Shown: positions 28,038-54,222 of the stretch, piece by piece | How the letters are laid out: every line of letters starts with the position of its first letter | Position numbering within the stretch: the stretch's first letter is position 1 | Origin: an uncultured Bacteroidales bacterium | GTDB lineage: Bacteria; Bacteroidota; Bacteroidia; Bacteroidales; GCA-2748055 | Assembly: GCA_963753765.1 (NCBI GenBank) | Contig: CAVWDQ010000006.1 | Location: forward strand, 65,297 to 129,296 | Direction: 5' to 3' | DNA length: 64,000 nucleotides | Notes under the pieces: model-generated | Told to the model about the DNA's origin: nothing | What the model saw: the letters and a program-made list of their open reading frames with translations, nothing else | The model's database searches: none | Made by a program: the position numbers and the translations under genes

Positions 28038-28519
28038 ATGCAAGAAAAAACAGATCACAAAGCCTTCCTGAAGTTAGCAGTTGATGAGGCCTTCACTGGT
28101 ATGAGAGCCGGAGAAGGAGGCCCCTTTGGCGCTGTCATCACCAGCAAGGGAAAGATCATTGGCAGCGGACACAATACTGTACTTGCATCCAGGGATCCCA
28201 CAGCACATGCAGAGGTGAATGCCATCCGGAATGCCTGCAAACATCTGGAGAGCCATCACCTGACGGGGCAGTCATCTACTCCAATTTTGAACCCTGTCCC
28301 ATGTGCCTTGCAGCCATATACTGGGCAGGAATACGCACCCTCTTCTTCTGTAACGATCGTTCCGATGCAGAGAGGATCGGCTTTATGGACAAACACCTTT
28401 ACCGGGAACTATCCCTGGACCAGGACAAAAGGGAAATCAGGACATCACAGCAGGCCCTGCCGGAGATGGAAGTACTTATTGAGGAATGGATGGGACTGGA
28501 AGGGAAACAACTATATTAA
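28038..28519 (+). pseudogene. CMP/dCMP-type zinc deaminase (guanine deaminase-like), one frameshift
   Basis: It begins MQEKTDHKAFLKLAVDEA...GGPFGAVI...PTAHAEVNAIR (HAE motif). The frame is lost in the G4 run 28265-28268. Adding one G gives HHLTGAVIYSNFEPCPMCLAAIYWAGI (PCxxC motif), joining ORF 28301-28519. Confidence 0.8.
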
Positions 28520-28566
28520 TATGCAATTATAATAAATCGAACATACTAACTAAACCAGATCAAATC

Positions 28567-29859
28567 ATGGACAGAAGAAATTTTATTGGAAAATCGGCTC
28601 TTGCCGCTGGTGCAGCAGCCATTATTCCAGGCCAGGCTATGGCTAAAGATTCAAAGAAATATATTGCCCCCAGTGACAAAATTAACCTGGGTTATATTGG
28701 GACGGGCAAACAAAGCCTGGGACTTTTAAGAAGTATTGCCGGTTGCCCGGAGACCATGGTGCTGGCTGCCTGTGATGTGGACAAAGTTAAACTGGATCGT
28801 TTCAAAAAAGCAGCTGAAAAAGCCAACTCTGTTAAACTGGATGGTGGCAACCAGGTGGTTGACACCTATGAAAATTACAGGGAACTCCTGGAAAGAAAGG
28901 ACATTGATGCGGTGGTGATCGCCACCCCCGATCACTGGCATGCCATGATTGCCATTGATGCTGCAAAAGCAGGGAAAGATATCTATTGTGAAAAACCCAT
29001 GGCACTTACCGTTGCTGAAGGCCGGGCCATGGTCTCTGCCACCAGGAAGTATGAGCGTGTGTTCCAAACCGGAAACATGCAACGGTCCTGGAGGAACTTC
29101 AGGCATGCCTGTGAGATGGTTTCCAACGGATATATCGGGGAGATCAAGGAAATAAATGTAAGCGTTGGAGATCCGGTTATGGCCTGTGAGCTTCCTGCTG
29201 TGCCGGTTCCGGAGAATCTGAACTGGGACCTCTGGGTGGGACCTTCCATGTTCAGGAATTACAACCCCGAGCTTGCCCCTCCTATCAACGACAATAGTTG
29301 GGCCAACTGGAGAGCCTACCGCGATTTTGGCGGCGGATTGATCACCGACTGGGGTGCCCATATGTTTGATATTGCCCAGTGGGCCATGGGTATGGATAAT
29401 TCAGGACCCATTGAGTTTATCCCACCGGAGCATGGAGCCAAAAGGGGAATGCAAATGAAATATGCCAATGGTGTAATCATGAATCACGTCGACTGGGGCG
29501 ATTTCAATGCCGTTCAGTTCCTGGGATCCGAAGGAAAAATAGAAGTGAGTCGGAGTTTTTACCGCTCCGATATTGAAGGGCTCACTGAAATTGAACTGAA
29601 GGACAGCGATACAGCGCTATATACAAGTGATAACCACTACCAGGACTGGGTGGATGCCATAAAGAAGAGAACACGTCCGGTTTCCGATGTGGAGACTGGT
29701 CACAGGACCGCTTCACTGTGCAATATCGTTAATATAGGCTATACACTGGAACGTACACTGAACTGGAAGCCCGCTCATGAGAAATTCATTGACGACGATG
29801 ATGCAAATGGTATGCTTACCAGGCCTTTCCGAGGATCGTGGGATTTTCATGACTTTTAA
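28567..29859 (+). CDS. Tat-exported Gfo/Idh/MocA-family oxidoreductase
   Basis: The twin-arginine leader is MDRRNFIGKSALAAGAAAIIPGQAMA. It has a Rossmann motif (INLGYIGTGKQS), DAVVIATPDHWHA and an EKP motif (YCEKPMALT). The track ORF starts earlier (28486), which I consider read-through. Confidence 0.85.
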   Translation: MDRRNFIGKSALAAGAAAIIPGQAMAKDSKKYIAPSDKINLGYIGTGKQSLGLLRSIAGCPETMVLAACDVDKVKLDRFKKAAEKANSVKLDGGNQVVDTYENYRELLERKDIDAVVIATPDHWHAMIAIDAAKAGKDIYCEKPMALTVAEGRAMVSATRKYERVFQTGNMQRSWRNFRHACEMVSNGYIGEIKEINVSVGDPVMACELPAVPVPENLNWDLWVGPSMFRNYNPELAPPINDNSWANWRAYRDFGGGLITDWGAHMFDIAQWAMGMDNSGPIEFIPPEHGAKRGMQMKYANGVIMNHVDWGDFNAVQFLGSEGKIEVSRSFYRSDIEGLTEIELKDSDTALYTSDNHYQDWVDAIKKRTRPVSDVETGHRTASLCNIVNIGYTLERTLNWKPAHEKFIDDDDANGMLTRPFRGSWDFHDF

Positions 29860-33023: not shown

Positions 33024-33887
33024 TCAGAGTTGTTTTTTCAGCTCTTCCAAGCCCCTGAGGTTACGTTCCAGGACCACCTTGATGTCCTCCCCTTCAGTAT
33101 GTCCGAGGATCCCGATGGATCCTGAGAATCCAGAATTCTGAATGATCCTAAGCATCTCCAGCTCCCGGTCTCCCTCACCCAGGGGAATGATCTTGGGCCC
33201 CTCAACCCGCATCCCGTTAATATTAATCGTGGATAGGTAAGGCAGCATCAAAGCGAGATTCTCCTGAAAATGATCTATCTGGTGATGTCCATGGTGGAAG
33301 TTATATACGATCCTGACCTTGTCCGATCCAAAAGATTCAACGACTTTGACCAGGTTAGCTGGTTCACCAAACCATCCCCCATGGTTATAGAGTGCAAGAG
33401 TACAACCAAGCTCCTCGCATTCCCGAAGGATGTCTTTTACCACCTCCACTGCTCTGGAAAGGCTCTCTTCATCTGAAAGTCCTTCAAAGGCATGATCTGG
33501 AAATCCCAGCCAGATTTCCGTCCGGGTACCGGTCTCCCTGAGGATATCCAGAATTTGCCTGCCAGCATTATTAAGCGGCTCTTCCCATTGTGGATCTACC
33601 CATAGCCAGACAGCACCCAGCATAATATGATGATCCTTTAATATTCCTATCTCCTCCCTGAATGAGGGAATATGTTCATCCCTGTAATCATAAGCGAAAT
33701 GCTTTAATCCCAAATCATCCAGCATCTCTGCTCTTTCGCCCGGAGTTCGGTTCTTAGCATCAAAAGGCACAATGCACCAGGCAACCAGGTTTTCTTTTTC
33801 AAAAAGTGCTTTTTCTCCTTCATGTGCTGAATTGCATCCCGCAAAAGCAATAGAAAATAGCATTGATATGACGATTATATTTTTCAT
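33024..33887 (-). CDS. Xylose-isomerase-like TIM-barrel protein (sugar phosphate isomerase/epimerase family), lipoprotein
   Basis: It has a lipobox (SIAFAGC). Metal-site-like segments are LALYNHGGWFGEP, NFHHGHH and SIGILGHTEGED. Confidence 0.7.
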   Translation of the reverse strand: MKNIIVISMLFSIAFAGCNSAHEGEKALFEKENLVAWCIVPFDAKNRTPGERAEMLDDLGLKHFAYDYRDEHIPSFREEIGILKDHHIMLGAVWLWVDPQWEEPLNNAGRQILDILRETGTRTEIWLGFPDHAFEGLSDEESLSRAVEVVKDILRECEELGCTLALYNHGGWFGEPANLVKVVESFGSDKVRIVYNFHHGHHQIDHFQENLALMLPYLSTININGMRVEGPKIIPLGEGDRELEMLRIIQNSGFSGSIGILGHTEGEDIKVVLERNLRGLEELKKQL

Positions 33888-35935: not shown

Positions 35936-37448
35936 TTACAACTCCCATCCTTTCCTGTAAGTTCTGGTTAAAAATTCATTGGCTTCAGGCACATTGGTGA
36001 TCTCCACCTTCTCCGGATCATAATCCACCCTTTTCCCTGCCCTCAGGGCCACTCCTCCCAGGAGGATGGTCTGCGTGACCGGTGCAGCTTTCAGGAAGGT
36101 TCCGGGCGACTCTTCCCCTTTCTTAAAGGTCTCAATCCAGTCGCGATCGCTGCGTATGGTTTCCTCCTTCGGCGGTTTGTCTGATCCGGTAAGTTCTATC
36201 ATTCGTTTTTCCGGAATGATCTTTGGGCTCTCTCCACGGAAACCAGCCAGGATCTTCCCCTTGTCTCCCACAAACATCATCCCCTCTCGCGGCAGATCCT
36301 TGTCTTCGCCTTCCAGCTCTTCCGGGGTAAAGGGTTTCATGCCCCCATCGTACCAGTATAGTTTGAAGGCAGGCAGGGTCTCCTGCTCCGGGAAATCAAA
36401 TTTTACCATACTTGAATAGGGGAAGGCCACATTGTTGCGTACACCTTTACTCACGTGGTCCACTACTTCGCAGGTGGTGGTTCCGTAAGCTCTTGCACTC
36501 AAAGGTGCCGTGTTAATTCCAAGTTGAAGGAAGAGGGGCCATAGACTGTAGTGTCCCATATCGGCAATGGCTCCTGCTCCAAAGTCATACCAGCCCCGGA
36601 AAACCGCATGGGTATAATTCAGGTTATAAGGGCGGTCGGGCACTGGTCCCAGCCAGAGATCCCAGTCAAATCCATCGGGTATGGGCATCTCCTCTTTCGG
36701 ATTGGAGGTCCACTGCGGCCAGACGGGACGATTCGACCAGTTATGGATCTCGGTCAGATTTCCAATAACACCCTGCTTGATCCATTCCCTGGCCACATCC
36801 AGTCCGCTTCTCTGGCTCCAGGCCAAGAGGTGAGAACCCACGCCAGTTGTTCTTGGCGGTATCAATGCTTAGCAGGGCTTCCTTCATGCGGTTGGCAATG
36901 GGCTTATGAATCACCACAGGCTTTCCTTTTTTCAGAGAGGCGATGGAAACCGCTGCGTGCAGATGATCGGGTGTCATAATCTTCACCGCATCCACATCTG
37001 TCTCCTTCTCCAGCAGCTCCCGGTAATCGTTATAAGCCTTACAGCCATTGTAACTCCCCTGTCCACTCTTCAGGGCATAGTATTTATCCACGAATTCCTT
37101 CCCCAGATCACGCCCCCCGGGAATACCATCCAGACCGCTTCCCCATTCAGAATCTTCAAGGGTACGGCGGATGATGTTGCGAATGCCATTTAAAGACCAG
37201 TCCACATAGTCGGTAGTGAATTTATTGGGGTCGCATACGGAGGTAATCTGTATATCTTCCTCTTTGAGGAGGGGCGCCATCTCTCTGATACCCTGGGTCC
37301 CGCAACCTATGTAGGCGATATTCATTTTATCACTTGGTGCGGTAAAGCCAGCTCCTCCCAGCACATGCCTGGGAACAACAGTAAAAGCAGCTGCAGCAGC
37401 AGTTGTACCCACAAACTTTCTGCGGGTAATTTTTTTGGAATTTTTCAT
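35936..37448 (-). pseudogene. Tat-exported Gfo/Idh/MocA-family oxidoreductase, one frameshift
   Basis: The leader is MKNSKKITRRKFVGTTAAAAAFTVVP, with a Rossmann motif MNIAYIGCGTQG. Fragments are 36741-37502 and 35936-36865. The junction is near 36845-36856 (...LSIDTAK / TTGVGSHLLAWSQRSG). Confidence 0.8.
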
Positions 37449-37530
37449 GCTGGTCGTTTGGTTAGGATCACTAAATTTAGGAAATTCCGCCATAGCCTTC
37501 ACTCTGAAATGCCAGAAAAAAGTTTCTATG

Positions 37531-37649: not shown

Positions 37650-39131
37650 ATGAGTAAAGAAAAAAAGGGTGGAGTTTCCCGTAGAGCATTTGTGGGAACT
37701 ACAGCCGCTGCAACTGCAGGATTTACCATTCTTCCAAGCAATGTGGTCAGCGGAATGGGACACATTGCCCCCAGCGATAAGATGAACATTGCTGCTGTGG
37801 GTGTCGGTGGAATGGGTGCTTCCAACCTCCGGAACATCAAGGACCAGAATATTGTGGCTCTTTGTGATGTGGACCATAAGTATGCTGCAGGAACATTTGA
37901 GAAATATCCGGATGCCAAGAAATTCTGGGACTGGAGAAAGATGTATGATAAGATGGGCAAAGATATCGATGGTGTTATTGTTGCCACAGCCGACCATACT
38001 CACGCACTGATTGCTGCCCATGGAATGACCATGGACAAGCATATGTATGTGCAAAAGCCTTTGACACACTCTGTTTATGAATCACGCTTGCTGACCAACC
38101 TGGCAGACAAGCATCAGCTGGCCACTCAAATGGGAAACCAGGGTTCTTCAGGCGAAGGTGTTAACCTGGTTTGTGAATGGCTCGCCAATGGCGAGATCGG
38201 CGAGGTTACAAAAGTTGAAGCCTTTACCGACCGTCCCATCTGGCCCCAGGGTCTGAATATACCCGAAGAAAAGCAAGAAGTACCCAAGACTCTTAACTGG
38301 GACCTCTTTACCGGTCCGGCCTCATTGAATGATTTCAATGAGATCTATCACCCCTGGAACTGGCGTGGCTGGTGGGACTATGGAACAGGTGCCCTTGGCG
38401 ATATGGCCTGTCATATCCTGCACCCGGTCTTTGTTGGTCTGAAATTGCAGTACCCCACCAAGGTACAGGGTAGTTCTACCCTCTTGCTGACCGAATGTGC
38501 TCCCAATGCACAGATGGTGAAGCTGACTTATCCTGCAAGGCCAAACATGCCCAATCTCGCTTTACCTGAAGTAGAAGTGACCTGGTTTGATGGCGGACTG
38601 CAGCCCATGAAGCCCGAAGGATGGCCAGAAGGTAAAAATATGAACGATCAGGGTGGTGGTGTTCTGTTCCACGGAACCAAGGATACCCTGGTTTGTGGTT
38701 GCTACGGTGTGAATCCCTGGTTGCTGTCAGGACGTGTGCCCGATGCTCCCAAGTTCAGGCGTCGCGTAGAGACCAGCCATGAAATGGACTGGGTAAGAGC
38801 ATGTAAGGAGAGTCCTGAAAGCCGTGTTCAGACTGCATCTCCCTTCAGCGAAGCCGGACCATTCAACGAAATGGTGGTTATGGGTGTTAATGCTGTACGT
38901 CTCCAGGGCCTGAACAAGGAGCTGGAATGGGATGGCGAAAAAATGGAGTTCACCAACATTGGCGAAAGCGAAGAGCTGCGCATGTGTATCAAGGACGGTT
39001 TTGAGATCCACGACGGACACCCAACCTTCAAGAAGGACTGGACCGACAAGTTCTCTGCCCTTGAGTTCTCCAGGGACCTGGTGAAGCACACTCCAAGAGA
39101 AGGTGGATGGGAACTTCCCCCCATGCCTTAG
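37650..39131 (+). CDS. Tat-exported Gfo/Idh/MocA-family oxidoreductase
   Basis: The leader is MSKEKKGGVSRRAFVGTTAAATAGFTILP, with a Rossmann motif MNIAAVGVGGMG. It also has DGVIVATADHTHA and YVQKPLTHS. It is a paralogue of the gene at 35936-37448. Confidence 0.85.
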   Translation: MSKEKKGGVSRRAFVGTTAAATAGFTILPSNVVSGMGHIAPSDKMNIAAVGVGGMGASNLRNIKDQNIVALCDVDHKYAAGTFEKYPDAKKFWDWRKMYDKMGKDIDGVIVATADHTHALIAAHGMTMDKHMYVQKPLTHSVYESRLLTNLADKHQLATQMGNQGSSGEGVNLVCEWLANGEIGEVTKVEAFTDRPIWPQGLNIPEEKQEVPKTLNWDLFTGPASLNDFNEIYHPWNWRGWWDYGTGALGDMACHILHPVFVGLKLQYPTKVQGSSTLLLTECAPNAQMVKLTYPARPNMPNLALPEVEVTWFDGGLQPMKPEGWPEGKNMNDQGGGVLFHGTKDTLVCGCYGVNPWLLSGRVPDAPKFRRRVETSHEMDWVRACKESPESRVQTASPFSEAGPFNEMVVMGVNAVRLQGLNKELEWDGEKMEFTNIGESEELRMCIKDGFEIHDGHPTFKKDWTDKFSALEFSRDLVKHTPREGGWELPPMP

Positions 39132-39217: not shown

Positions 39218-41541
39218 TTAAAGAACCACACCCTCCATGGATTTCTCCAGTTGACGTGCATTGGTCAGGAACTCTTCAACGCTCATTTCCTTGAAATAAA
39301 GGAGTCCGTTTGCTGACCTTGTTCGTGGATTCTTGCTCTGATAGAAGGTGTTCTTACCAACCAGCAATTGTATCTGCTTTAACTGCTCCACCCAGATACG
39401 CTTGGTCAGATCACTGAATTTGCCATCAAGCTGATAAGAAGGGAAAGAAGCATCCACCTGGCTCAGATAACTATTGGTGAATGCACCGTCCATAACACCC
39501 ATGGCATTCAGGGAGACCGGCGCTATGACATTGACTTCTGCCGGGTGGAAGCGATACCACACATTTCTGTATCCCCAGACCCTCAGCGCAGACGTATCCA
39601 CCTCTTCACTGTACAAACGCAAAGCCTCGGCAATCACCTGGAGCACCTTGTAGTGGGTATCGGGGCCACTGCCCTCGGGATCAAAGGCCAGGCTTACCAC
39701 GGTGGGTTTATATTTCCTGAGCTCTGCCAGTACCGGCTCTACATCTCTCTCCAGCTTGGGCTGCTCGGTAAATACCTCCCCGGTATAAAAGCCCAGCCTC
39801 AGGTGACTTACCCGGCTGGTTCTGAATCCAAAGTAGCCCCAGACCAGCTCTTCCTCAAATTCCCTGATCATCCCCTTCAGCTTCTGTATATCAGGTTGAT
39901 TAATTTCGCCGTCGTAACTCTTTTCCAGGATGTGAATGATGTTGTTAATCTGATCGCGAAGCTGATCCACACTTTTAAGCTTATAAAGACCCACCATATC
40001 CCGCACAATCCTGTGTGCCAGGCCCCGACGCAATTCGCTTTTCTCGCCCGAAGCAACCTTCAGCAGATAGTGATTCACATCTTTGTCACGCTTATGATTT
40101 ATATCCTTTTTCGAAAAAATCAGGATAGTGGGTCATTTGCATCTCTCCCTTGTCCAGGAAATACCTGGTATCCTCCAGGGCCTTGATCACAAAGTCATTG
40201 GTTACTGCAGTAAATCCGGAGGTATGTACTGAAAAATAACTGGTGTTGCTATCCTCCCGGGAAAGTCTGTGGACGTGGGGATTGATTCCCAGCATGATAT
40301 CGTCATGATGGGGCCCGGTATGGTAATATATCTGGTTCTTCTCTACGGCTGTCCCCTTTTCATATTTCTTCTCAATAGATTTGAATACTGTTGATATGGT
40401 GTTCTCATCCAGTCCGGGAATCATTTTACAGTACCTGTCCCCCTTCAGATCGCTCATGGTAAGGTGATGACCATACTTATTCAATCTGGAACAGAGGTCA
40501 ATGACGGCCCGGTCGGTTTTCTCCTGGGTCCAATCCCCTTCTTTGTAATATGCATCCACTGAGGATTGAAGACCGGCAGCTGCACCTGTAGTCAGATAGA
40601 AGCGGGCATTCTCCAGTTTATTCAGCACGCTGGCCGGATAAAGAACTGAGGCTTTATTTTCCAGGGCCTCCTTTACAACGGTGGCTTTGGCTTCCCCTGC
40701 AGCAAATATCAACGCCACTGCATCCGGATTATGGGTAATGGTATCGAGCCCTATGGTGATCACCAGCCGGTTGCGGGAAATCTCAATTCCTCCAAGGTCA
40801 CCTGCTGCCACAGCCTGAGTCTCAAAGTTTGTTTCAGTCAGCCTGGTCGTTGAGTAATGATCGGATCCCCTTACATTAAAAGCGATGTGGCCATCAGGAC
40901 CAATTCCTCCCAGGAAAAAACCAATACCTCCCTTATCTCTTATTTTCTGCTCATATTCTGAACACCAGTTATCGATGGCAAACACCGATTCCTGCTGCAT
41001 TTTCTCAAATTGGCTTTTGGGGTCCCGGTACCTCAGGGAGAGATCTACCTTGCTATCGGGAAATGCCTCGGAAAAATGGCAGGCACCTGATAGAGGAATC
41101 TCATCGGAATTGATCAGCAGGGCATTCTTTGGATCCAGACCAAAGCCCTTGATATAGTACTTCTGAACATAATTGTAAAAACTGTTGTGTTGGGATGAAC
41201 TGATGGGATAAAACTCATCGATCTGCACAAAATGGAGGTCCTTCAGAGAAGGCTTCTTCAAATCGGCCAGTCCATACTTGCTTCGAAGTTCCTTTATCTC
41301 TTTCTCATCCCAGTTTCTTCAGCAAATGAGTGGTCCACTTGATAAAATATTCCGGAGTCTTTCCGGTGGGAAGGCTGATGACTCCTTCGGGGTTCTCACT
41401 GACCCACTCCAGGAATCGGAGCGCGGTAAGTAAACCCATCAGTGGAAAGTTTTCCACCACAATGTAGGGAATGTTGGTAGTGATCTCCGGTTCGCCGGAA
41501 ATCTTATAAAAAGCTGATTCAACTTTTGATTTAAACTGCAT
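39218..41541 (-). pseudogene. nagB: Long-form glucosamine-6-phosphate deaminase (NagB-II type, ~770 aa when frames are joined), two frameshifts
   Basis: Fragments are 41305-41541, 40092-41261 and 39218-40078. Deaminase-core motifs are ISLPTGKTPEYF, FVQIDEFYP, FFLGGIGPDGHIAFN and VITIGL. The breaks lie in the TTT run 41314-41316 (adding one base gives LLKKNWDEKEIKEL) and in the T5/A6 runs 40117-40129. Confidence 0.8.
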
Positions 41542-41642: not shown

Positions 41643-42713
41643 TTACATTCCGGGTACCGGATCGTGACAATCGGTACAGAACATGGAGTGGATGTTGTTG
41701 GGACTCTCGCTGTTCTTATAGGTGGTGTTCATGGTCATCACATCCAAGCCACAGCTGGTAACTGCAGGGTGACAGGTCTTGCAGGCATTCCGGGGATCGT
41801 TGGAGTGTCCGCGGTGACAGGCCCGGCAGCTGATCCCTTCATGCACACCCACCGGGGTGCGGTCATCCTCGGTGCCCGCCTGGTGGGCCCAGTTGGGCGA
41901 ATGACACTGAATACAGATGAGCTGCAGCGGATCATCGGAAACCAGTACAGGAATCTCACCGTCATAGATGTCGGGCTTCCGGAGCTTATCGGCCCGAAGG
42001 TGCATTCGGTCGGCGCGAAGGTAAAGACCCGTGAGAGGATTACGCTCTTCCCGTTCATAAAAAATGGCGTAGGGATCGTCCATGGACTGCGGATGTGCCA
42101 TGGGTTCATTCTCCATATGGATGGGGTGACAGCTCAGACAGGGGATTACGGGATGGGAAGCTTTTTCCGGATCTTTCAACTTCCAGGGTCCGGTGGTGGA
42201 GATGGGTTCCACCAGGTCGGCGATGGTCCCGTCGTAATACATACCGTGACAGCGGAAACAATCGGGATAGGGCCGCTCCATGGAGTTGTGTTTTTCATTC
42301 AGAAAGATATCTGCATAGGTGGCAGAGTGTCCGCCTGCCTGCCACGAGCTATATTCGTCGCGGTGACAATTGATACAGGCCTCCATCACCTGGAGCACCC
42401 CCTCTTCGTCGAGGCTCACTCTCTGCTTTGCCGGCTCCTCACGGAAATGTGAAAAAAACATGCCCGCCTTCTCTTTCAGGCTGTGAAATCCGTTCCCCAG
42501 GGCACTTCCATGACAATCCACGCATTTCACATCCCTGTGCGCACTTTGTTGCCAGATTTCCAGGGAGGGAACAATCTCGTGGCAGGAAGCACAGGTACGT
42601 TCCGGGTTGGCAGAGTTCCAGCCTGCATAGCCGCCGAAGAGCACCAGCAATAATAATGCAAGGATTAAAACGGTGCCCAGAACTCTTTTTTGTTTTTTGT
42701 GCCTGATCATCAT
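41643..42713 (-). CDS. Membrane-anchored multihaem cytochrome c (nine CxxCH; NapC/NirT/NrfH-like N-terminus)
   Basis: It has an N-terminal TM helix (VLGTVLILALLLLVLFGGYAGW). The CxxCH motifs are CASCH, CVDCH, CINCH, CFRCH, CLSCH, CIQCH, CRACH, CKTCH and CTDCH. The first pair (CASCHEIVPSLEIWQQSAHRDVKCVDCHG) follows the NapC/NrfH pattern. There is an ATGA overlap with the upstream GMC gene. Confidence 0.85.
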   Translation of the reverse strand: MMIRHKKQKRVLGTVLILALLLLVLFGGYAGWNSANPERTCASCHEIVPSLEIWQQSAHRDVKCVDCHGSALGNGFHSLKEKAGMFFSHFREEPAKQRVSLDEEGVLQVMEACINCHRDEYSSWQAGGHSATYADIFLNEKHNSMERPYPDCFRCHGMYYDGTIADLVEPISTTGPWKLKDPEKASHPVIPCLSCHPIHMENEPMAHPQSMDDPYAIFYEREERNPLTGLYLRADRMHLRADKLRKPDIYDGEIPVLVSDDPLQLICIQCHSPNWAHQAGTEDDRTPVGVHEGISCRACHRGHSNDPRNACKTCHPAVTSCGLDVMTMNTTYKNSESPNNIHSMFCTDCHDPVPGM

Positions 42714-44365
42714 GACTTAAAATGGGTTCCGTTCCAGTTTCGGGTAATGTAATCCGACACCCAGTATCCCAGGGCCATGATGGTGAGGACCGGGTTAAAT
42801 CCTCCATTGGTCACACAGAGACTTCCGTCTGCCACAAAGAGGTTGTCGATGCCATGAACCTGACCATAGCGATTGCACACCGAGGTCTGCGGATCATTAC
42901 CCATACGAGCCGTTCCTGCCTGGTGCTGTCCCCCGCTGAGTCCGCGTCCCCCCACCCGCTGCCAGGTCTGAATGGCTCCGGCCTCTTTCAGGACCATCTC
43001 AGCTTTGGAGGAGAGAAATTTGCAATGTTCGTAATCGATGGAATGCCGGCTGCCGGACATGGCAACCACCGGAATGCCCCAATGATCGGTAACCGAGGGA
43101 TCCACTGTAATTCTGGATTCGAAATTGGGAATCTCCTGGATGGGCCCCTGGAGAACGGCCATCCGTTTGATATTTCTCATCTGGAAGTCTTTGTGCTCCT
43201 TTCCCCACCGCTTTGCCCCCGGGGGACGCGCGTTCGAAAAGAGATAAGGGAGGGGATTAAACTCGTTGGCCAGCATTCCACCTCCAACAATGCCTTCATT
43301 GTGGTGGTTAAAATCACAAAAAGCCAGGGAGGCACCCGGACCGGCAAAATCGGTGATTTCAAAATCGAAAAGTCCTGCGGCCCCGGTATAGGCATGTCCC
43401 TGCAGGTTGCGGCCTACCCAGTCGTAATTATTACCCAGTCCCTTTGGGAAAAGCTCCGATTTTGAATTCAACATCAAACGGGCAGTCTCCGTTGCAGAAG
43501 CAGCCAGGATCACCAGGTCGGCCGTCTGTATCTGTCCCTTATCTTTGCCATCAAAATATTTAATCCCTGTAACCCGGCCGGAAGCATCGCTCATCACCTC
43601 TGCCACCTGGCAGTGGGTCCTGACTTCACAGTTTCCTGTGGCCATGGCCGTGGGAATAACCGTATTGTGGGTACCGTTCTTTCCATCAACCGGACAGGCA
43701 AAACCCACACAGGTCCGGTTGCGGATGCAGGCAGGACGCCCGTTGTAGGGGACCGAATTCCTGAGCATGGGTATGGGAAAGGGATGAAGACCCAGTCTGC
43801 CGCCTGCTTCTGCCAGCACCCCTCCCTCCCGGGTGTATTCAAAGGGCGGCATGGGCTGTGGCTTTTTTCGTGGAGGAGCAAAGGGATTCTGGCTGTCGTC
43901 GCCCGATACCCCGATCTCCCATTCAGCTTTCTCATAATAGGGTTCAAGATCCTCATAGGAGATGGGCCAGTCGTCGAGGGTGGAAGCCTCCACCATACCG
44001 TAAGTAGATTTTAACTTAAAATCCTCCGGCATAAAACGCCATGCCATGGCCCCATAGGAAACGGTGCCCGATCCCACACAGGCAGCATTGTGACCATAGC
44101 CTCCGGTGATGGGTGTGACCACCCTTTTTGTTCCGTCCGGCTGGATACTTACCCGTGGATTCTTTCTGTGATCGGGCCCAAAGGCCGAACCCAGTACCTG
44201 GGTGCGCTGGGATATGAGTTCATCATTGATATGTGCATCATAGTCGGGCCAGCCGCCCCTTTCAAAGAGTACCACGGAAAGTCCGTGTTCTGCCAGCTCC
44301 TTGGCGACCACGCCCCCCCCTGCACCGGCTCCCACTATAATGGCATTCACATGTGTATTGGCCAT
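42710..44365 (-). CDS. GMC-family FAD-dependent sugar dehydrogenase, catalytic subunit
   Basis: It has an N-terminal FAD motif (AIIVGAGAGGGVVAKELAEHGLSVVLFERG) and a C-terminal GMC block (GTARMG...NLFVADGS). A Cys triad is present (PACIRNRTCVGFACP). There is no signal peptide. Confidence 0.85.
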   Translation of the reverse strand: MANTHVNAIIVGAGAGGGVVAKELAEHGLSVVLFERGGWPDYDAHINDELISQRTQVLGSAFGPDHRKNPRVSIQPDGTKRVVTPITGGYGHNAACVGSGTVSYGAMAWRFMPEDFKLKSTYGMVEASTLDDWPISYEDLEPYYEKAEWEIGVSGDDSQNPFAPPRKKPQPMPPFEYTREGGVLAEAGGRLGLHPFPIPMLRNSVPYNGRPACIRNRTCVGFACPVDGKNGTHNTVIPTAMATGNCEVRTHCQVAEVMSDASGRVTGIKYFDGKDKGQIQTADLVILAASATETARLMLNSKSELFPKGLGNNYDWVGRNLQGHAYTGAAGLFDFEITDFAGPGASLAFCDFNHHNEGIVGGGMLANEFNPLPYLFSNARPPGAKRWGKEHKDFQMRNIKRMAVLQGPIQEIPNFESRITVDPSVTDHWGIPVVAMSGSRHSIDYEHCKFLSSKAEMVLKEAGAIQTWQRVGGRGLSGGQHQAGTARMGNDPQTSVCNRYGQVHGIDNLFVADGSLCVTNGGFNPVLTIMALGYWVSDYITRNWNGTHFKS

Positions 44366-44371
44366 GGTCTG

Positions 44372-44926
44372 TCAGCTTAAATGTTCATAATGGTTGCGCC
44401 CCACCACCAAAGGATAATCCAGCCCCATCATTCGATAACTCATATAATCTTTGTTTCCTCCATGCCTGGGGGAACCATAAAATCCCTGCATGGTATGTGC
44501 AATAAGCAAAGAGAAAAAACGGCCCTGGTCCAGATCACCCCAGTGTTCTTCGGGAAGTGTCCTTTCCTCCATGCCTGTGCAAAGGGAGTACTGGCTTTCC
44601 TTATCCAGGTTTTCAAAACGCCTTCCATGAAGTTCCAGGCAGCTGTTCTGCAAAGCGGAAATACCCTGCTGGTAAATGAGCTGGTCATAGTTAAAAACTG
44701 CCACCAGCTGGCGGTCGATGTAGTGGATCACACCGGCCTCGGTGGCTCCTCCCCCGTGTTCATCCTCGGGGATAATCTGTTCGGCCAGGGCAATCACGCA
44801 GAGAGCTTCTTCATCCGAGAAAAACCGCCAGGAGGAGCTGGCCCTGGTCACACAGGAGGGCATGAGCAGGATACTTCCAAATCCGGCCACTCCTGTTCTC
44901 AGGAAGGCTCTTCGATTCATGTACAT
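44372..44926 (-). CDS. Tat-signal small subunit (gluconate 2-dehydrogenase subunit 3-like)
   Basis: The leader is M(YM)NRRAFLRTGVAGFGSILLMPSC. It is ~180 aa and lies 6 nt upstream of the GMC gene. The segment EDEHGGGATEAGVIHYIDRQL is typical of this family. Confidence 0.75.
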   Translation of the reverse strand: MYMNRRAFLRTGVAGFGSILLMPSCVTRASSSWRFFSDEEALCVIALAEQIIPEDEHGGGATEAGVIHYIDRQLVAVFNYDQLIYQQGISALQNSCLELHGRRFENLDKESQYSLCTGMEERTLPEEHWGDLDQGRFFSLLIAHTMQGFYGSPRHGGNKDYMSYRMMGLDYPLVVGRNHYEHLS

Positions 44927-44997
44927 GAAGTGGTAATAGTTAGGTTGGATAATTTTGCAATAAATCCCTTTAGAACAAAATTAAACTAAGCGGCCAC

Positions 44998-45759
44998 TCA
45001 TTTATAGAGCTCGGCATCTCCCGTTTCGGCCAGGGAAATAAAGAGCGCTGCAAGTTTTGCCGTGACCTCCCGGAAATAGAGCTCTCCTTTTTCCAGGGTG
45101 GCTTTGCGGGGATCGCCCACCCCGGTATCGTCGGTACACCGGGTCCATTTTCGTTCGGTCCAGGCCCAGGATTCATTTAGAGACTCCACACTGAACTTCT
45201 TTGCCTTTCCCGGTCCGGCCTGGTCCAGGGGTTTCACCAGCTTCGGATTTGTATACAACATCAGGCTGGTTTCCATTTCATCGGCATGTCCGCCGTCATT
45301 TTCAAAAATCTTACCCTGGTCCACCGACTGGAACCAGTTGCAGGTGGCCATAAGCAGGTCCGGGTAATTTGCCCCAACCTCCCGGAGGATCTGCCTGAAA
45401 TCGTTCCCGCCATGACCATTTACAATAAGAAGCTTCTCCACACCATAGCCATCCAGGCTTTCCACAACATCCTCCAGGATGGCTTGCTGGGTGGAGGGAT
45501 TCATATTCAGAGTCATGTAGATATCGGACTGACCTGTATTCACCCCCAGGGGAATGGTGGGCAAAACGATCACCTTCGCTCCCTTCTCCCATGCTATCCG
45601 GGCTGCTTCAAAAACAAGGGCCTCTGTTTCATAGTTATCGGTTCCATAGGGAAGGTGGAAATTATGTGCTTCGGTGGCCCCCCATGGAAGGATGGCCAGG
45701 TCGAATTCCTGTTCACTGACTTCTGACCAGTGGGTTTCTGAAAGAATGTATGGTCGCAT
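44998..45759 (-). CDS. Creatininase-family metal amidohydrolase
   Basis: 253 aa. Creatininase-fold metal ligands are present in LPWGATEAHNFHLPYGTD, VNGHGGN and GGHADEMETS. Confidence 0.75.
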   Translation of the reverse strand: MRPYILSETHWSEVSEQEFDLAILPWGATEAHNFHLPYGTDNYETEALVFEAARIAWEKGAKVIVLPTIPLGVNTGQSDIYMTLNMNPSTQQAILEDVVESLDGYGVEKLLIVNGHGGNDFRQILREVGANYPDLLMATCNWFQSVDQGKIFENDGGHADEMETSLMLYTNPKLVKPLDQAGPGKAKKFSVESLNESWAWTERKWTRCTDDTGVGDPRKATLEKGELYFREVTAKLAALFISLAETGDAELYK

Positions 45760-45778
45760 GAGATAAAAGTTTATATGG

Positions 45779-45814
45779 GTTAGTGTAGTTAGTTGTTAAT
45801 TGTTAGTAGTTATT
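45779..45814 (-). repeat. Array of five ACTAAC-like units (read on the minus strand) in the URO-D / creatininase spacer
   Basis: On the + strand: gttagt at 45779-45784, 45788-45793 and 45802-45807, gttaat at 45795-45800 and gttatt at 45809-45814. The period is 7-9 nt. The array lies 19 nt upstream of the ATG at 45759. Confidence 0.85.
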
Positions 45815-45816
45815 GC

Positions 45817-46791
45817 TTAATTCGTTTTTTGGGAGGCGGTGCGCATGGCCTTGAGGTGTTCAATGGGTGTGTTTACAGTGATCTCGCAGCCTCCGGACAG
45901 GATGAAGGGTCTTCCCTCCTCCTGCTTACACAGCGCTTCCGATTCCCGGACGATCGCTTCCGCACCCTGGTCCTGGATGACTGTCACCGGATCAAGGTTA
46001 CCGCAGCGGATAATTTCATCCCCCAGCTTCTCGTAGGCCTGGTCCATATCAACCATCCAGTCGATATCAACAATGTCGGGTTTTACATCTCTTATATCCT
46101 CCAAAAGGTGGGTGATGTTCCCGCAAATATGCAACTTAACCCTGGCGCCCAGCGACTGGATATATTCAAAAAGTTCCCGCTGTCTATCCTTTACTAAATC
46201 TCTGTAGTTCTCCACATCTATCTGGGAACATATGGCATCGCCCACTCCGATAATATCGCATCCTGCCTCCACCTGTGCCCTGGCAAAATCCTTGGCAGTA
46301 ATCATGACCTTATCCATAAGCCGCTTGATGAAATCGGGCTCCATATAGATCTTAAGCAGGATCTCACTGACCCCGGCCAGGTCACAGCTCTCGGCCAGGG
46401 GACCTTCGATCCAGCCAATAACCGGCACTTCATTCCCCAGCTGCTTTCTAAGCGCTTCAGCTCCCCTGATCCTGTCCAGGGTCCTCTCCTCTTTATATAC
46501 ATCAGGATTCTTCAAGAGTGCAATATCCTCCATGGAACGAACCAGGATCTCCATGCAACGCGGTACGGCTTCATGGGGGAAAGTGATCTTTGCCCCAAAG
46601 GCAGCAGTCTCCCTGTACGGGTCGGAAATTACTCCCACTGCATCCATCCCAAAATCGTCCCGGCACCGGAGGTTGCTATCCACCAGCGCCCTGAAATCGG
46701 AGGCAAACTGGCCATAGGTATATCCCGCATACCGGGCTGCAAAATGCATCAGGATAGGATGAAATAATGTATGATTGCTCATGCCACCCAA
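45817..46791 (-). CDS. Uroporphyrinogen-decarboxylase (URO-D) family protein (MtaA/CmuA-like)
   Basis: 324 aa of the URO-D-like TIM barrel type. Segments include FGMDAVGVISDPYRETAAFGAKITFP, WIEGPL, IIGVGDAICS and PFILSGGCEI. Confidence 0.65.
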   Translation of the reverse strand: MGGMSNHTLFHPILMHFAARYAGYTYGQFASDFRALVDSNLRCRDDFGMDAVGVISDPYRETAAFGAKITFPHEAVPRCMEILVRSMEDIALLKNPDVYKEERTLDRIRGAEALRKQLGNEVPVIGWIEGPLAESCDLAGVSEILLKIYMEPDFIKRLMDKVMITAKDFARAQVEAGCDIIGVGDAICSQIDVENYRDLVKDRQRELFEYIQSLGARVKLHICGNITHLLEDIRDVKPDIVDIDWMVDMDQAYEKLGDEIIRCGNLDPVTVIQDQGAEAIVRESEALCKQEEGRPFILSGGCEITVNTPIEHLKAMRTASQKTN

Positions 46792-51055: not shown

Positions 51056-51238
51056 GTAAAATCAAGGCTTTTTTTACAATATGGAATGACTCTAAATAAG
51101 TCCTCAAGAGTATCAAAAGTGTTAAAAAACCTTAATTTCGTTATTGTACATATATGTATGTATGCACTCTTAAACTTAACAACGATCTAATTATTAGACA
51201 TTTTGTTATTCATTGCTAACTTTAAAACTACTTCAATT

Positions 51239-54222
51239 ATGCGAAATTCTGCATGGTGGAAAAGCGGCTTTTTGTCGCTAATCCTGTTTGGTTTTGCGAT
51301 CAGCTTAACCTTTGCCCAGGAGACAACAGTGACCGGTACGGTCTCTTCCGACATGGAAGGCCCGATTCCCGGTGTAAACATTGTGATCCAGGGAACCACA
51401 CAGGGGGCCGTGACCGACGTGGATGGTAATTATAGTATTACCGTTCCGGGTCCCGATGCCGTCCTGGTATTTACTTCTATTGGTTATGCTTCACAGAGTA
51501 TTACTGTGGGCAACCAGACCTCTATTAATGTTTCACTCGTGGAGGATGTCCAGGCTCTGGACGAAATTGTGGTTATCGGTTACGGTACCCAGAAAAAGAA
51601 AGAGCTGACCAGTGCCATCTCCAATGTGAAATCAGAAGAGTTCAACAAGGGTTCGGTGAACAGTCCAGCCGGACTGGTCCAGGGTAAAGTGGCCGGTCTC
51701 TCTATCTCCAAGCCGGGTGGCAACCCCAACCAGGGTTACACCATGCGTTTGCGTGGTATGAGTACCATTGGTGCCAACACCCAGCCCCTTGTTGTAATCG
51801 ACGGTGTGGTTGGTGCAGATCTCAACAACGTTGATCCCAACGACATTGAGTCCATGGACGTCCTGAAGGACGGTTCCGCTGCTGCCATTTACGGCACCAG
51901 GGGATCCAGTGGTGTAATCCTCGTGACTACCAAGAAAGGTAGAAGGGGAACTGCCCAGATCAATTACAATGGCATGGTAACTCTGGAAACCGTGGGTAAA
52001 TTTCCCAATGTGATGACTTCAGATCAGTGGCGCACCCTTTCAGCAGAGACAGGGACCGGAACGGATTTTGGATACGACACAGACTGGTTTGAGGAAACTA
52101 CCCAGAATGCTTTCCAGCAGACCCACAACCTGAGCTTATCAGGCGGTACCGATAAGACCACCTACATGGCCTCTTTCAACTACCGTGACGGAGATGGTAT
52201 AGCCATCAATACCGGGTATACCCAGTACAACGGAAGACTGAACCTGAGTCAGAAAGCCATTAACGACCGCCTGACTGTGGACCTGAATATCGGTGCCACC
52301 CAGCGCGAATGCTCAGTTGGGTTTTGACGAAGCATTCCGTTATGCCAGTATCTTTAATCCCACGGCTCCCGTAAGAAGCGATGATGCTGCATACGAGCAG
52401 TATGACGGGTACTTCCAGCAGGTACTTTATGATTACTACAATCCGGTGGCCATTCTGGAGCAGAATGTAAATGACAGAAAAGACCAGCGTGTAAATGTCG
52501 CACTGAAAGGTACCTTTGAAATTATAGATGGTCTGAAAGTAGATGCTTTCTACTCAATTCAGAATCAGAACGACAACAAAGGCAGCTACCGTGACAAAAA
52601 CAGCTACGGAACCGGTATGGACCGCAACGGTCTGGCCCGGAGATGGTATGATGAGAACTCATTCCAGCTGTTCGAATCAACCATCAACTACCTGACCGAT
52701 ATTAGCGGTGCCAGCCTCCAAATCCTGGGAGGATATTCCCACCAGAGCTTTAACTGGCAGGGATTTTCCGCAGAAGGTGGCGATTTCATCACCGATGCCT
52801 TTACCTATAACAACCTGGGCGCTTCCAAAGACTTTAATGAAGGAATTGGAAGATCTATACAGCTATCAGAATATGGGTACACTGATTGCTTTTTTTGGCC
52901 GGGTTAACCTGAATGTAACCGACAGCTGGTTCCTGATGCTGAGTGGACGTTATGAAGGATCCAGCCGTTTTGGTGAAGGTAACAAATGGGGTCTCTTCCC
53001 TGCCGTTGGTGGTGGGGTGGACCTGGCCAATGTGCTGGATATTTCCGCCATGGACAACCTGAAGCTGCGAGTCAGTTACGGAATCACCGGCAACCAGCCC
53101 CCGGATCCTTACTATGTCGCTTTTGCGCCTGAGTCCATCCGGAAACTTCTTTTATAACGGGGACTTTATTCCCGGTTACGCCCCTTCCAGCAATGCCAAC
53201 GCGGATCTGGGATGGGAGAAGAAAGGCGAATTTGACATGGGAATTCGACTTCTCACTGCTGGACGGAAGGTTGTATGGTTCATTTGACTTACTATACCAG
53301 GACCACCACCGACCTGCTTTTCGAATACGAGGTGCCGGTTCCTCCGAACCTTTATGCCACTGCCTGGATGAACCTGGGTGAGATAAAAAACAGCGGTCTG
53401 GAACTGACCCTGAGCTGGAATGCAGTGCAGTCAGGTGATTTCTCCTACAGTACCACCATTACGCCCACCTATTACCTGAAGAACGACCTGGTCTCCCTCT
53501 CCGGTACATTTAACGGTGCAGAGCTGACCTACGGTGTACGCGACCTGGGTGCCATGGGTGCCCCCGGACAGGCTGGTGTACCTCTTGGTTAGAGCCGAAG
53601 AAGGAGAACCCATCGGTCAGCTCTGGGCCCATACCTTCATGGAGGTAGGCCCTGATGGCGACCTGATCCTCCGTGATACCAACGAAGATGGTACCGTGGA
53701 TGAACTGGACCGCTCTGTGTAAGGAAACGGACTGCCCGATGCTGAATTCGGATGGGGCAACATGCTTCAAGTTCAAGAATTGGGAACTGAATATCTTCTT
53801 CCGCAGTGTACTTGGACACTGACCTGAACAACACCTTCCAGGGCATTCTATGAAGTGCCGGCAGATGATCACTTCTTATAACCTTCCGGTAACCGCCACC
53901 GATATGAGAAACGCTGAGACCGGAACCCTGCTGAACAACTCTTCAGGATGTGCTTTCGAGCTATCACATTGAGAATGCCTCATTCTTTGCACTGGACAAT
54001 ATGAGCACTGGCCTATAACTTTGATATGTCGGGAAGCAACGCTTTCAGGAACATCCGGGTCTTTTTAGCAGGCAACAACCTGTTCTACATCACCGGTTAC
54101 AAGGGGGTTGATCCCAGCTCCGGTATGACGACGGTGGCAATGTACTGATCCCCGGTATCGATAGAAGGAATACCTGGTTCAGGACCAGGTCTGTTTCACT
54201 GGGTGTAAGCCTCGGTTTCTAA
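51239..54222 (+). pseudogene. susC: SusC/RagA-type TonB-dependent receptor, many frameshifts
   Basis: It starts MRNSAWWKSGFLSLILFGFAISLTFAQ. A CarbopepD_reg domain follows (VTGTVSSDMEGPIPGVNIVIQGTTQGAVTDVDGNYSI), then a plug (DEIVVIGYGTQKKKELTSAIS; MDVLKDGSAAAIYGTRGSSGVILVTTKKG). Track fragments are 51203-52327, 52293-52907, 52708-53157, 53193-53381, 53275-53592 and 53534-53722, with further short pieces ending ...RSVSLGVSLGF (54222). Confidence 0.85.

Follow-up and report, generated by a model that had tools for sequence, protein, structure and literature searches.

A conserved gene trio joins a GMC flavoprotein to a nine-haem membrane cytochrome with a NapC/NrfH-like module

A 64,000-nucleotide stretch of DNA from an uncultured Bacteroidales bacterium (assembly GCA_963753765.1, contig CAVWDQ010000006.1; "the window" below means this whole 64-kb stretch) contains three packed minus-strand open reading frames (ORFs), running from position 44926 to position 41643, for a small subunit, a GMC flavoprotein and a nine-haem cytochrome c. 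We refer to the three genes together as the trio. On balance, we lean towards the view that their products form one periplasm-facing, membrane-bound dehydrogenase complex, which would pass electrons via the nine-haem cytochrome to menaquinone. In such a complex, the cytochrome would stand in for the high-potential trihaem class-I cytochrome c of the ubiquinone-linked proteobacterial enzymes. This view is built on the gene anatomy, the homologies of the three proteins, the conservation of their motifs and the linkage of the genes among distant hosts.

Anatomy of the trio

The small-subunit gene (44372..44926, minus strand; 184 aa) belongs to the Gluconate_2-dh3 family, and its product is a predicted hitch-hiking carrier that would take the flavoprotein out through the twin-arginine translocation (Tat) pathway. 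Its TGA stop codon is followed by 6 nt (cagacc) and then by the ATG of the GMC gene (42710..44365, minus strand; 551 aa; GMC_oxred_N plus GMC_oxred_C), which encodes the catalytic subunit and no signal peptide. The stop of the GMC gene and the start of the gene for the membrane-anchored cytochrome (41643..42713, minus strand; 356 aa; nine CxxCH motifs) share an ATGA at 42710..42713 on the same strand, with '...AAG TCA TGA' overlapping 'ATG ATG ATC'; both junctions were read directly. This packing, with its 6-nt gap and ATGA overlap, had been described in the first-pass annotation of the window, and the ORF calls and the junction reading bear it out. Apart from the cytochrome gene, no ORF of the 64-kb window has more than one CxxCH motif.

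Linkage across phyla

Relatives of the cytochrome make up more than 1,259 clusters at 90% identity. At 50% identity, among 1.84 billion representatives, 671 clusters match at an E-value of 1e-3 or lower, and 90 at 1e-30 or lower; the family is compact and stands apart in sequence. A first scan, of one genome per species, gave at least 576 matching stretches; the best 80 of these, which were taken further, belong to Bacteroidia, Prolixibacteraceae, Draconibacterium, Mariniphaga and Cytophagales, to Ignavibacteriota, and to one Puniceicoccaceae genome. Draconibacterium mangrovi GM2-18 is a cultured carrier, with its trio at about 532,302-535,618 of NZ_JAAAGB010000003.1 (L018). A second scan, with distant members (36-43% identical to the window cytochrome) as queries, gave at least 542 matching metagenome contigs, and the 80 taken from these come from peat and soil metagenomes, with Terracidiphilus (Acidobacteriota) as named relatives. 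The sequences thus sampled fall into two deep branches, a Bacteroidota/Ignavibacteriota type and an Acidobacteriota type. One locus labelled 'uncultured Anaerolinea sp.' (L039) agrees with a Prolixibacteraceae contig (L040) in hit coordinates and identities alike; mis-binning is probable, and an occurrence in Chloroflexota is doubtful.

The window's three proteins were placed by tblastn on 162 loci (L001-L162). The GMC gene lies directly 5' of the cytochrome gene in 152/154 informative loci, in at least three phyla and in both branches, and the small-subunit gene lies 5' of the GMC/cytochrome pair in 124/125, the genes being on one strand. The two exceptions retain all three genes: the order is small subunit, cytochrome, GMC in L028, and a gene of glycoside hydrolase (GH) family GH95 is inserted between the GMC and cytochrome genes in L041. 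As in the window, the junction between the GMC and cytochrome genes is overlapping or abutting in most loci. Pairwise identities of the three proteins correlate (r = 0.94-0.95), and one Prolixibacteraceae genome (contig CAXXEH010000003.1) carries three complete trios (L058, L060 and L068), two of them with a tandem GMC gene (small subunit, GMC, GMC, cytochrome). When the flanking ORFs of every locus are clustered, the trio alone is common to all. The trio, being conserved, co-varying and jointly duplicated, therefore behaves as one heritable module.

Linkage of the cytochrome to the GMC/subunit-3 pair in Bacteroidota was one of the tests on which the first-pass annotation had let its proposal stand or fall, and the linkage holds. 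In the flanks of the 162 loci, we found neither nrfA nor any other recurrent partner beside the cytochrome; taken with the GMC linkage, this rules out a cytochrome whose usual partner is nrfA. One extra multihaem ORF is present in these flanks (L112, 1802-3439; 545 aa, five haem motifs). It lies just 5' of the trio on an Acidobacteriota-type contig, and has c7-like and MtrC-like matches.

The flavoprotein

The flavoprotein matches GMC_oxred_N (1.4e-12) and GMC_oxred_C (7.3e-20), and its nearest solved relatives are large subunits of fructose dehydrogenase (FDH; 8xcm/7w2j, ~1e-50, full length). Over query residues 6-541/544, the match to 8xcm_A has an E-value of 1.2e-50, and that to 6a2u_B, the alpha subunit of the glucose dehydrogenase of B. 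cepacia that depends on flavin adenine dinucleotide (FAD; the enzyme is BcGDH below), has 3.9e-49. The protein opens directly with the GxGxxG fold (MANTHVNAIIVGAGAGGG) and therefore has no signal peptide; in accordance with this, Kyte-Doolittle analysis finds no hydrophobic segment. The FAD-binding GxGxxG motif, read from the sequence as GAGAGG at residues 12-17 (44315..44332, minus strand), falls within Rossmann-type Pfam matches over residues 6-40. In the databases, the protein goes by the name 'choline dehydrogenase-like flavoprotein'.

Three cysteines in the arrangement Cys213-x5-Cys219-x4-Cys224 (43694..43729, minus strand; PACIRNRTCVGFACP) are the predicted ligands of a 3Fe-4S cluster. 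They align with 'PQCCGNNNCMP-ICP' of FDH and correspond to BcGDH Cys212/218/222. In BcGDH, Cys212, Cys218 and Cys222 hold a 3Fe-4S cluster, and Cys213 forms a disulfide to the gamma subunit (PMC6719666). The triad is kept in 135/135 GMC homologues, inside the pattern C-x-R-x-R-x-C-x-G-F/Y-x-C, and in both copies of the tandem GMC genes noted above. We infer that the flavoprotein of the trio carries a 3Fe-4S cluster on Cys213, Cys219 and Cys224. The position of the inter-subunit disulfide cysteine of BcGDH is occupied by Ile.

The GMC active-site pair, His481 and Asn524 (42794..42925, minus strand), is 100% conserved in the 135 homologues, and the FDH histidine to which the H1147A entry refers aligns with His481. 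Where FDH and glucose dehydrogenase have the histidine of the covalent FAD link (BcGDH His105), the trio protein has Ser103, as do 93% of the homologues, so the flavin is probably not covalently bound. This histidine characterises the solved members, and is perhaps not a defining feature of the FAD-dependent dehydrogenase family. We note a fourth cysteine, Cys96 (44078-44080), which is kept in 96% of the cytochrome-linked GMC proteins, where fructose dehydrogenase has Gly; it sits in the loop that, in BcGDH, runs between the FAD and the cluster.

The small subunit

The small subunit matches PF13618 Gluconate_2-dh3 at 1.1e-24, and its database cluster mates are labelled 'gluconate 2-dehydrogenase gamma chain'. 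The N-terminus (MYMNRRAFLRTG) contains the Tat motif NRRAFLR, which is followed by a lipobox-like ...MPS-C25; together, these occupy 44852..44926 on the minus strand. Among 127 homologues, R5 (99%), R6 (98%) and F8 (98%) are nearly always kept, and Cys25 (44852-44854) is invariant (127/127), with G, S or A as the preceding residue in 92%; the usual contexts are AIGC, AVGC, LPGC and AVSC. A Tat signal that ends in an invariant lipobox cysteine indicates that the small subunit is probably a Tat-exported lipoprotein. No such lipobox cysteine is reported for BcGDH in PMC6719666, where the role of the small (gamma) subunit as a hitch-hiker for export is documented. By analogy with BcGDH, the small subunit of the trio would play the same role. 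A sequence search of the PDB with the small subunit gave no match at E up to 1, so its likeness to the BcGDH gamma subunit is one of Pfam family.

For these two proteins, the first-pass annotation had proposed a Tat-signal small subunit of the gluconate 2-dehydrogenase subunit-3 type, a 551-aa signal-less GMC flavoprotein, and a cysteine triad like that of the 3Fe-4S site in Burkholderia FAD-glucose dehydrogenase. All three stand, given the PF13618 match and the NRRAFLR motif, the GMC domains with their N-terminal GxGxxG and lack of a hydrophobic segment, and the alignment and invariance of the triad.

The nine-haem cytochrome

The nine CxxCH motifs of the cytochrome start at residues 41, 64, 113, 152, 192, 267, 296, 311 and 346. 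All nine are kept in 150/157 homologues, the other seven being N-terminally shortened by ATG-only ORF calling. A basic N-terminus, MMIRHKKQKR, precedes a single transmembrane helix (residues ~11-31; 42621..42683, minus strand; Kyte-Doolittle maximum 2.57), which is the only hydrophobic segment (~11-29 by hydropathy), and haem 1 lies ~10 residues beyond it. The count of one membrane anchor and nine haem motifs in 356 aa, as first annotated, is thus confirmed. AlphaFold2 models, built without haem from 51 and 75 sequences, have a predicted local distance difference test score (pLDDT) of 65.1 and 70.8, and predict residues 5-34 to be helical, with a pLDDT that reaches 96 there. The databases name the protein 'hypothetical protein', 'cytochrome c3 family protein' or 'multiheme c-type cytochrome'.

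The helix and haems 1-4 (Cys41, 64, 113 and 152; 42246..42683, minus strand) constitute a NapC/NirT/NrfH-like module. Searches with hidden Markov models, as the first-pass annotation had suggested, align residues 11-156 with positions 7-164 (of 174) of the PF03264 NapC/NirT profile at 27.6 bits, where the cut-off is 24.1, and 18/20 family members match this model. A profile of the N-terminal 170 residues, made from both branches, matches NrfH (2j7a_C) at 3.2e-7 over residues 15-115, from the helix through haems 1-3. The likeness of the N-terminus to NapC/NirT/NrfH, originally assigned to the first two haem sites with seven haems to follow, therefore stands, and its extent is corrected to four haems with five to follow. 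The NrfH model TIGR03153 is matched over residues 15-156 (5.5e-14) with 52.4 bits against a cut-off of 134.2, which is below equivalog level, and the NapC equivalog NF007906 is not reached (14.3 bits against 349). Haem 1 reads CASCHEI versus CTSCHIM in NrfH, so that the NrfH-specific methionine of CxxCHxM is absent, and as regards this methionine the module looks nearer to NapC or CymA than to NrfH.

The C-terminal extension comprises haems 5-9 (Cys192, 267, 296, 311 and 346; 41646..42245, minus strand), of which haems 6-8 are c7/c3-like. Residues 265-315 match Pfam c3_2 (5e-14) and c7 (1e-7), and a C-terminal profile matches the c7-type trihaem domain 1rwj (6.6e-4) across haems 6-8. The DmsE family (TIGR03508, DmsE/MtrA decahaem) is matched over residues 262-352 only (2.3e-9; 37.1 bits against a cut-off of 192.2, and so below it). 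A profile of the whole cytochrome gives only weak PDB matches, to NrfH (6e-4) and c552, and the cytochrome profiles show no likeness to NrfA, HAO or MccA above noise in the PDB. Overall, the cytochrome fits NapC/NirT at the domain level and stays below the equivalog thresholds of NrfH, NapC and DmsE. Two long relatives, P0168 (822 aa) and P0234 (667 aa), join cytochrome modules to glycoside-hydrolase-like regions (weak GH129 and GH42 matches), and may be true fusions or run-through gene calls.

Outside the haem motifs, histidines 59, 89, 129, 199, 291, 303 and 342 are invariant or near-invariant in 157 sequences, as are Lys82 (99%), Met158 (99%; CHGM, right after haem 4), Cys321 (100%) and Met328 (100%). 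Seven histidines and two methionines would suffice to make all nine haems six-coordinate, whereas Lys82, Met158, Cys321 and Met328 are candidates for unusual haem ligation or for a quinone site. Lys82 falls in the segment between haem 2 and haem 3, where CymA Lys91 also lies; the latter is needed for quinone interaction (PMC2762525).

A proposed electron path and its alternatives

In the proposed mechanism, the small subunit, with its Tat signal and lipobox cysteine, would bind the folded, cofactor-loaded flavoprotein in the cytoplasm and export it by hitch-hiking. The flavoprotein would then oxidise a hydroxyl of a sugar or glycoside at its FAD, from which electrons would move to the predicted 3Fe-4S cluster on Cys213, Cys219 and Cys224, and from the cluster to the C-terminal haems of the cytochrome. 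The five C-terminal haems would bridge the cluster to the NapC/NrfH-type tetrahaem module, which lies beside the single helix at the membrane and would reduce menaquinone, making the complex a substrate:menaquinone oxidoreductase that feeds the respiratory chain. We assign quinone reduction to the tetrahaem module because an N-terminal helix with a near-membrane haem 1 is the hallmark of the quinone-reactive NapC/NrfH family.

The host phyla, Bacteroidota, Ignavibacteriota and Acidobacteriota, use menaquinone. A low-potential multihaem partner would suit this acceptor better than a high-potential trihaem subunit would. The Nitrosomonas cytochrome cM552 is a proposed quinone reductase. The trihaem subunit of FDH is of high potential, with haems listed at 143, 259 and 545 mV (PMC6472588), and the partners of the classical flavoprotein dehydrogenases have three haems (PMC5979317). 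Multihaem inner-membrane cytochromes, namely a Sideroxydans CymA homologue and CbcL/MtoC, have been proposed as quinone reductases in Fe(II) oxidisers (PMC6295460), and TorC is a NapC-type cytochrome whose extra haem domain anchors its enzyme partner (PMC11727998).

Several observations weigh against a menaquinone-reducing complex. Characterised NapC, NrfH and CymA proteins mostly oxidise quinol, which is the opposite direction, and nine haems exceed the need of a simple quinone link. The NrfH and NapC equivalog models score far below their cut-offs, and members of the Acidobacteriota branch seldom match Pfam NapC/NirT. The confidence of the cytochrome models is moderate overall and falls below pLDDT 50 in the haem 1-2 region; Foldseek searches of these low-confidence, haem-free models against the PDB returned no match for the first model and two meaningless ones (E > 5) for the second. 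To equate Lys82 with NrfH Lys82 or CymA Lys91 is unsupported, the profile alignment placing NrfH Lys82 on His77. The flanking genes, moreover, differ between loci and so give no substrate.

The quinol-oxidising behaviour of the family that contains the N-terminal module would fit a reversed flow, with the cytochrome as a menaquinol dehydrogenase that feeds electrons to the flavoprotein; the latter would be a terminal reductase in the periplasm, its substrate perhaps a keto-sugar or some other organic molecule in oxidised form. The arrangement of FAD and Fe-S in BcGDH has also been likened to that of fumarate reductase (Fig. 6 legend, PMC6719666). However, FDH and FAD-dependent glucose dehydrogenase, the nearest characterised flavoproteins, are dehydrogenases, and the GMC active-site residues His481 and Asn524 are invariant. 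Since the oxidation of a sugar hydroxyl lies below menaquinone in potential, forward flow is favoured, and we regard the reversal as quite unlikely. We also think it unlikely, if worth keeping in view, that the nine-haem protein is mainly a periplasmic wire or electron store serving other periplasmic or outer-membrane acceptors, its helix being only an anchor. An onward acceptor had already been raised in the first-pass annotation, and the five extra haems do resemble c7/c3 and DmsE/MtrA-type modules, but no porin-cytochrome or other c-type cytochrome gene recurs beside the trio, the five-haem ORF of L112 being the single case among 162 loci, and the NapC/NrfH-like module is conserved together with its near-membrane haem 1.

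The residues that could give unusual ligation (Cys321 and Met328, both at 100%; Met158 and Lys82, both at 99%) also admit a catalytic cytochrome, in which such a haem would turn over a small molecule with electrons donated by the flavoprotein. Yet every one of the nine motifs is a plain CxxCH, the seven free histidines and two methionines are enough for six-coordination throughout, and nothing like NrfA, HAO or MccA rises above noise, which together make this reading very improbable. That the three genes are mere neighbours with no joint function is hardly credible, given a linkage that persists in 152/154 loci across phyla while the surroundings change, junctions that overlap or abut, proteins that co-evolve (r ~0.95), and whole trios duplicated within one genome. 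We retain the complex that delivers electrons to menaquinone as the favoured interpretation.

Gene neighbourhood and substrate class

The window holds several carbohydrate genes besides the trio: a GH94 phosphorylase (25524-27962), a xylose-isomerase-like TIM barrel (33024-33887) and three Gfo/Idh/MocA oxidoreductases (28486-29859; 35936-37502; 37650-39131, with a Tat-like RRAF N-terminus). The neighbours at other loci include GH3, GH5, GH29, GH95, a sulfatase and a sugar-transporter-like protein of the major facilitator superfamily. Genes of the PF06439 3-keto-disaccharide-hydrolase family lie near the trio in 12 loci of both branches (L032 8159-8890, L112 7249-7992, L001 12634-13425 and nine others), which hints at glycoside 3-dehydrogenase-like chemistry for some trios at least. 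The recurrent neighbours in the Acidobacteriota type look like housekeeping genes, as judged by eye from their sequences. Inference of a substrate from conserved neighbours failed, with only the trio common to all loci. Sugars or glycosides are the predicted substrate class, on the homology of the flavoprotein and the variable glycan-degrading neighbours.

Directly 5' of the trio in the window (44998-46791, minus strand), and in about 10-11 close relatives including L001, lie creatininase-family and URO-D-family genes. The pair is absent next to the trio in more distant loci, and may extend the operon in this clade. The 71-nt spacer between this pair and the trio (44927..44997, minus strand) holds TAATTTTG (44983-44976), which matches the Bacteroidota -7 motif TAnnTTTG and gives a weak hint of a promoter; the window as a whole shows no enrichment of this motif (35 found versus 30.8 expected). 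A sigma-70 promoter scan was uninformative, as its model is inapplicable to Bacteroidota. A terminator scan found no convincing terminator 3' of the cytochrome gene.

Just 3' of the trio is a NagB-like gene, which is intact in L005 (773 aa) and split in the window (39218-41541, minus strand) into ~41541-41306, 41261-40092 and 40078-39218. The split amounts to two frameshifts, arising either from a pseudogene or from assembly indels. Two further genes of the window are split into overlapping ORFs: the Gfo/Idh/MocA gene at 35936-37502 (minus strand; 35936-36865 and 36741-37502) and a TonB-dependent receptor at 51203-52907 (plus strand; 51203-52327 and 52293-52907). The overlaps suggest assembly indel errors; the trio itself is full length.

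Implications

In textbooks, membrane-bound flavoprotein sugar dehydrogenases belong to aerobic Proteobacteria that use ubiquinone, and they are workhorses of direct-electron-transfer biosensors. The trio shows this catalytic core to be widespread in combination with an electron-transfer subunit of an entirely different kind; among its hosts are major degraders of glycans in sediments, digesters, peat and soil. A literature search, with incomplete full-text coverage, found no description of a GMC/small-subunit pair with a NapC/NrfH-like multihaem partner, in agreement with the earlier impression, in the first-pass annotation, that the architecture was undescribed.

If menaquinone is indeed reduced, periplasmic, respiration-linked oxidation of sugars or glycosides would be added to organisms that are modelled as importing glycans and fermenting them or oxidising them in the cytoplasm. 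The cytochrome would then be the second clear case of a NapC/NrfH-type module acting as a quinone reductase, and the complex would offer bioelectrochemistry a natural flavoenzyme with a built-in nine-haem wire. A broader proposal, to which we give a little less than an even chance, is that the cytochrome of the trio is the first of the NapC/NrfH type to be dedicated to a dehydrogenase of organic substrates, running 'backwards' as a menaquinone reductase; that periplasmic oxidation of sugars or glycosides would serve as a direct respiratory donor in menaquinone-based Bacteroidota, Ignavibacteriota and Acidobacteriota; and that the several paralogous trios of a genome would serve different glycans. 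The cultured carrier D. mangrovi GM2-18 makes the question directly testable.

Comparison with known systems

Among cytochromes, the NapC/NirT/NrfH/CymA group (represented by NrfH, 2j7a chain C) shares with the trio cytochrome a single N-terminal helix, a haem 1 near the membrane and four CxxCH motifs within ~120 residues. Unlike these proteins, which have ~160-200 aa, the trio cytochrome has 356 aa and five further haems, and it lacks CxxCHxM; its partner is a flavoprotein dehydrogenase rather than a reductase, and it is proposed to reduce quinone. The wider NapC/NirT family admits extended members, TorC among them. The pentahaem TorC and DorC likewise combine a NapC-type module with a C-terminal haem domain for a dedicated enzyme partner (PMC11727998). 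They differ from the trio cytochrome in having one extra haem versus five, a molybdoenzyme reductase as partner, and electron flow from quinol to enzyme.

As a class of proposed quinone reductases, the closest parallels belong to two families: cM552 and the Sideroxydans CymA homologue are members of the NapC/NirT family, whereas CbcL/MtoC form a separate one. Like the trio cytochrome, cM552 is proposed to pass periplasmic electrons to the quinone pool. The same has been put forward for the Sideroxydans CymA homologue (ImoA) and for CbcL/MtoC (PMC6295460). Their donors, however, are enzymes acting on inorganic substrates or iron oxidation, and none of these cytochromes is encoded beside a GMC flavoprotein. 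Geobacter ImcH, with seven haems, is likewise an inner-membrane cytochrome that exceeds four haems and interacts with menaquinone (PMC6295460); ImcH homologues differ in having three helices, an atypical CX3CH motif and no link to a GMC gene. ImcH did not turn up in the cytochrome family scans, and no direct comparison was made.

The FAD-dependent dehydrogenase complexes compared were BcGDH gamma-alpha-beta (PDB 6a2u/8grj), Gluconobacter FdhSCL (7w2j/8jej), gluconate 2-dehydrogenase, sorbitol dehydrogenase and 2-ketogluconate dehydrogenase. In common with the BcGDH and FDH complexes, the trio has a PF13618 small subunit with a Tat signal, a signal-less GMC subunit that matches at E ~1e-50 over its full length, a cysteine triad in register with the 3Fe-4S ligands, a third, membrane-associated subunit that is a c-type cytochrome, and a small-subunit gene that precedes the catalytic-subunit gene. 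It departs from them in Ser103 for the covalent-FAD histidine, in Ile for the disulfide cysteine and in the lipobox cysteine of the small subunit; its hosts are menaquinone-using Bacteroidota, Ignavibacteriota and Acidobacteriota, unlike those of the proteobacterial complexes. It also departs from them in the cytochrome, where nine haems, an N-terminal helix and a module of the NapC/NrfH type contrast with a trihaem class-I cytochrome c. In sum, the trio appears, from the sequences of its three proteins, to share what defines the FAD-dependent dehydrogenase complexes in all but the type of its cytochrome subunit.

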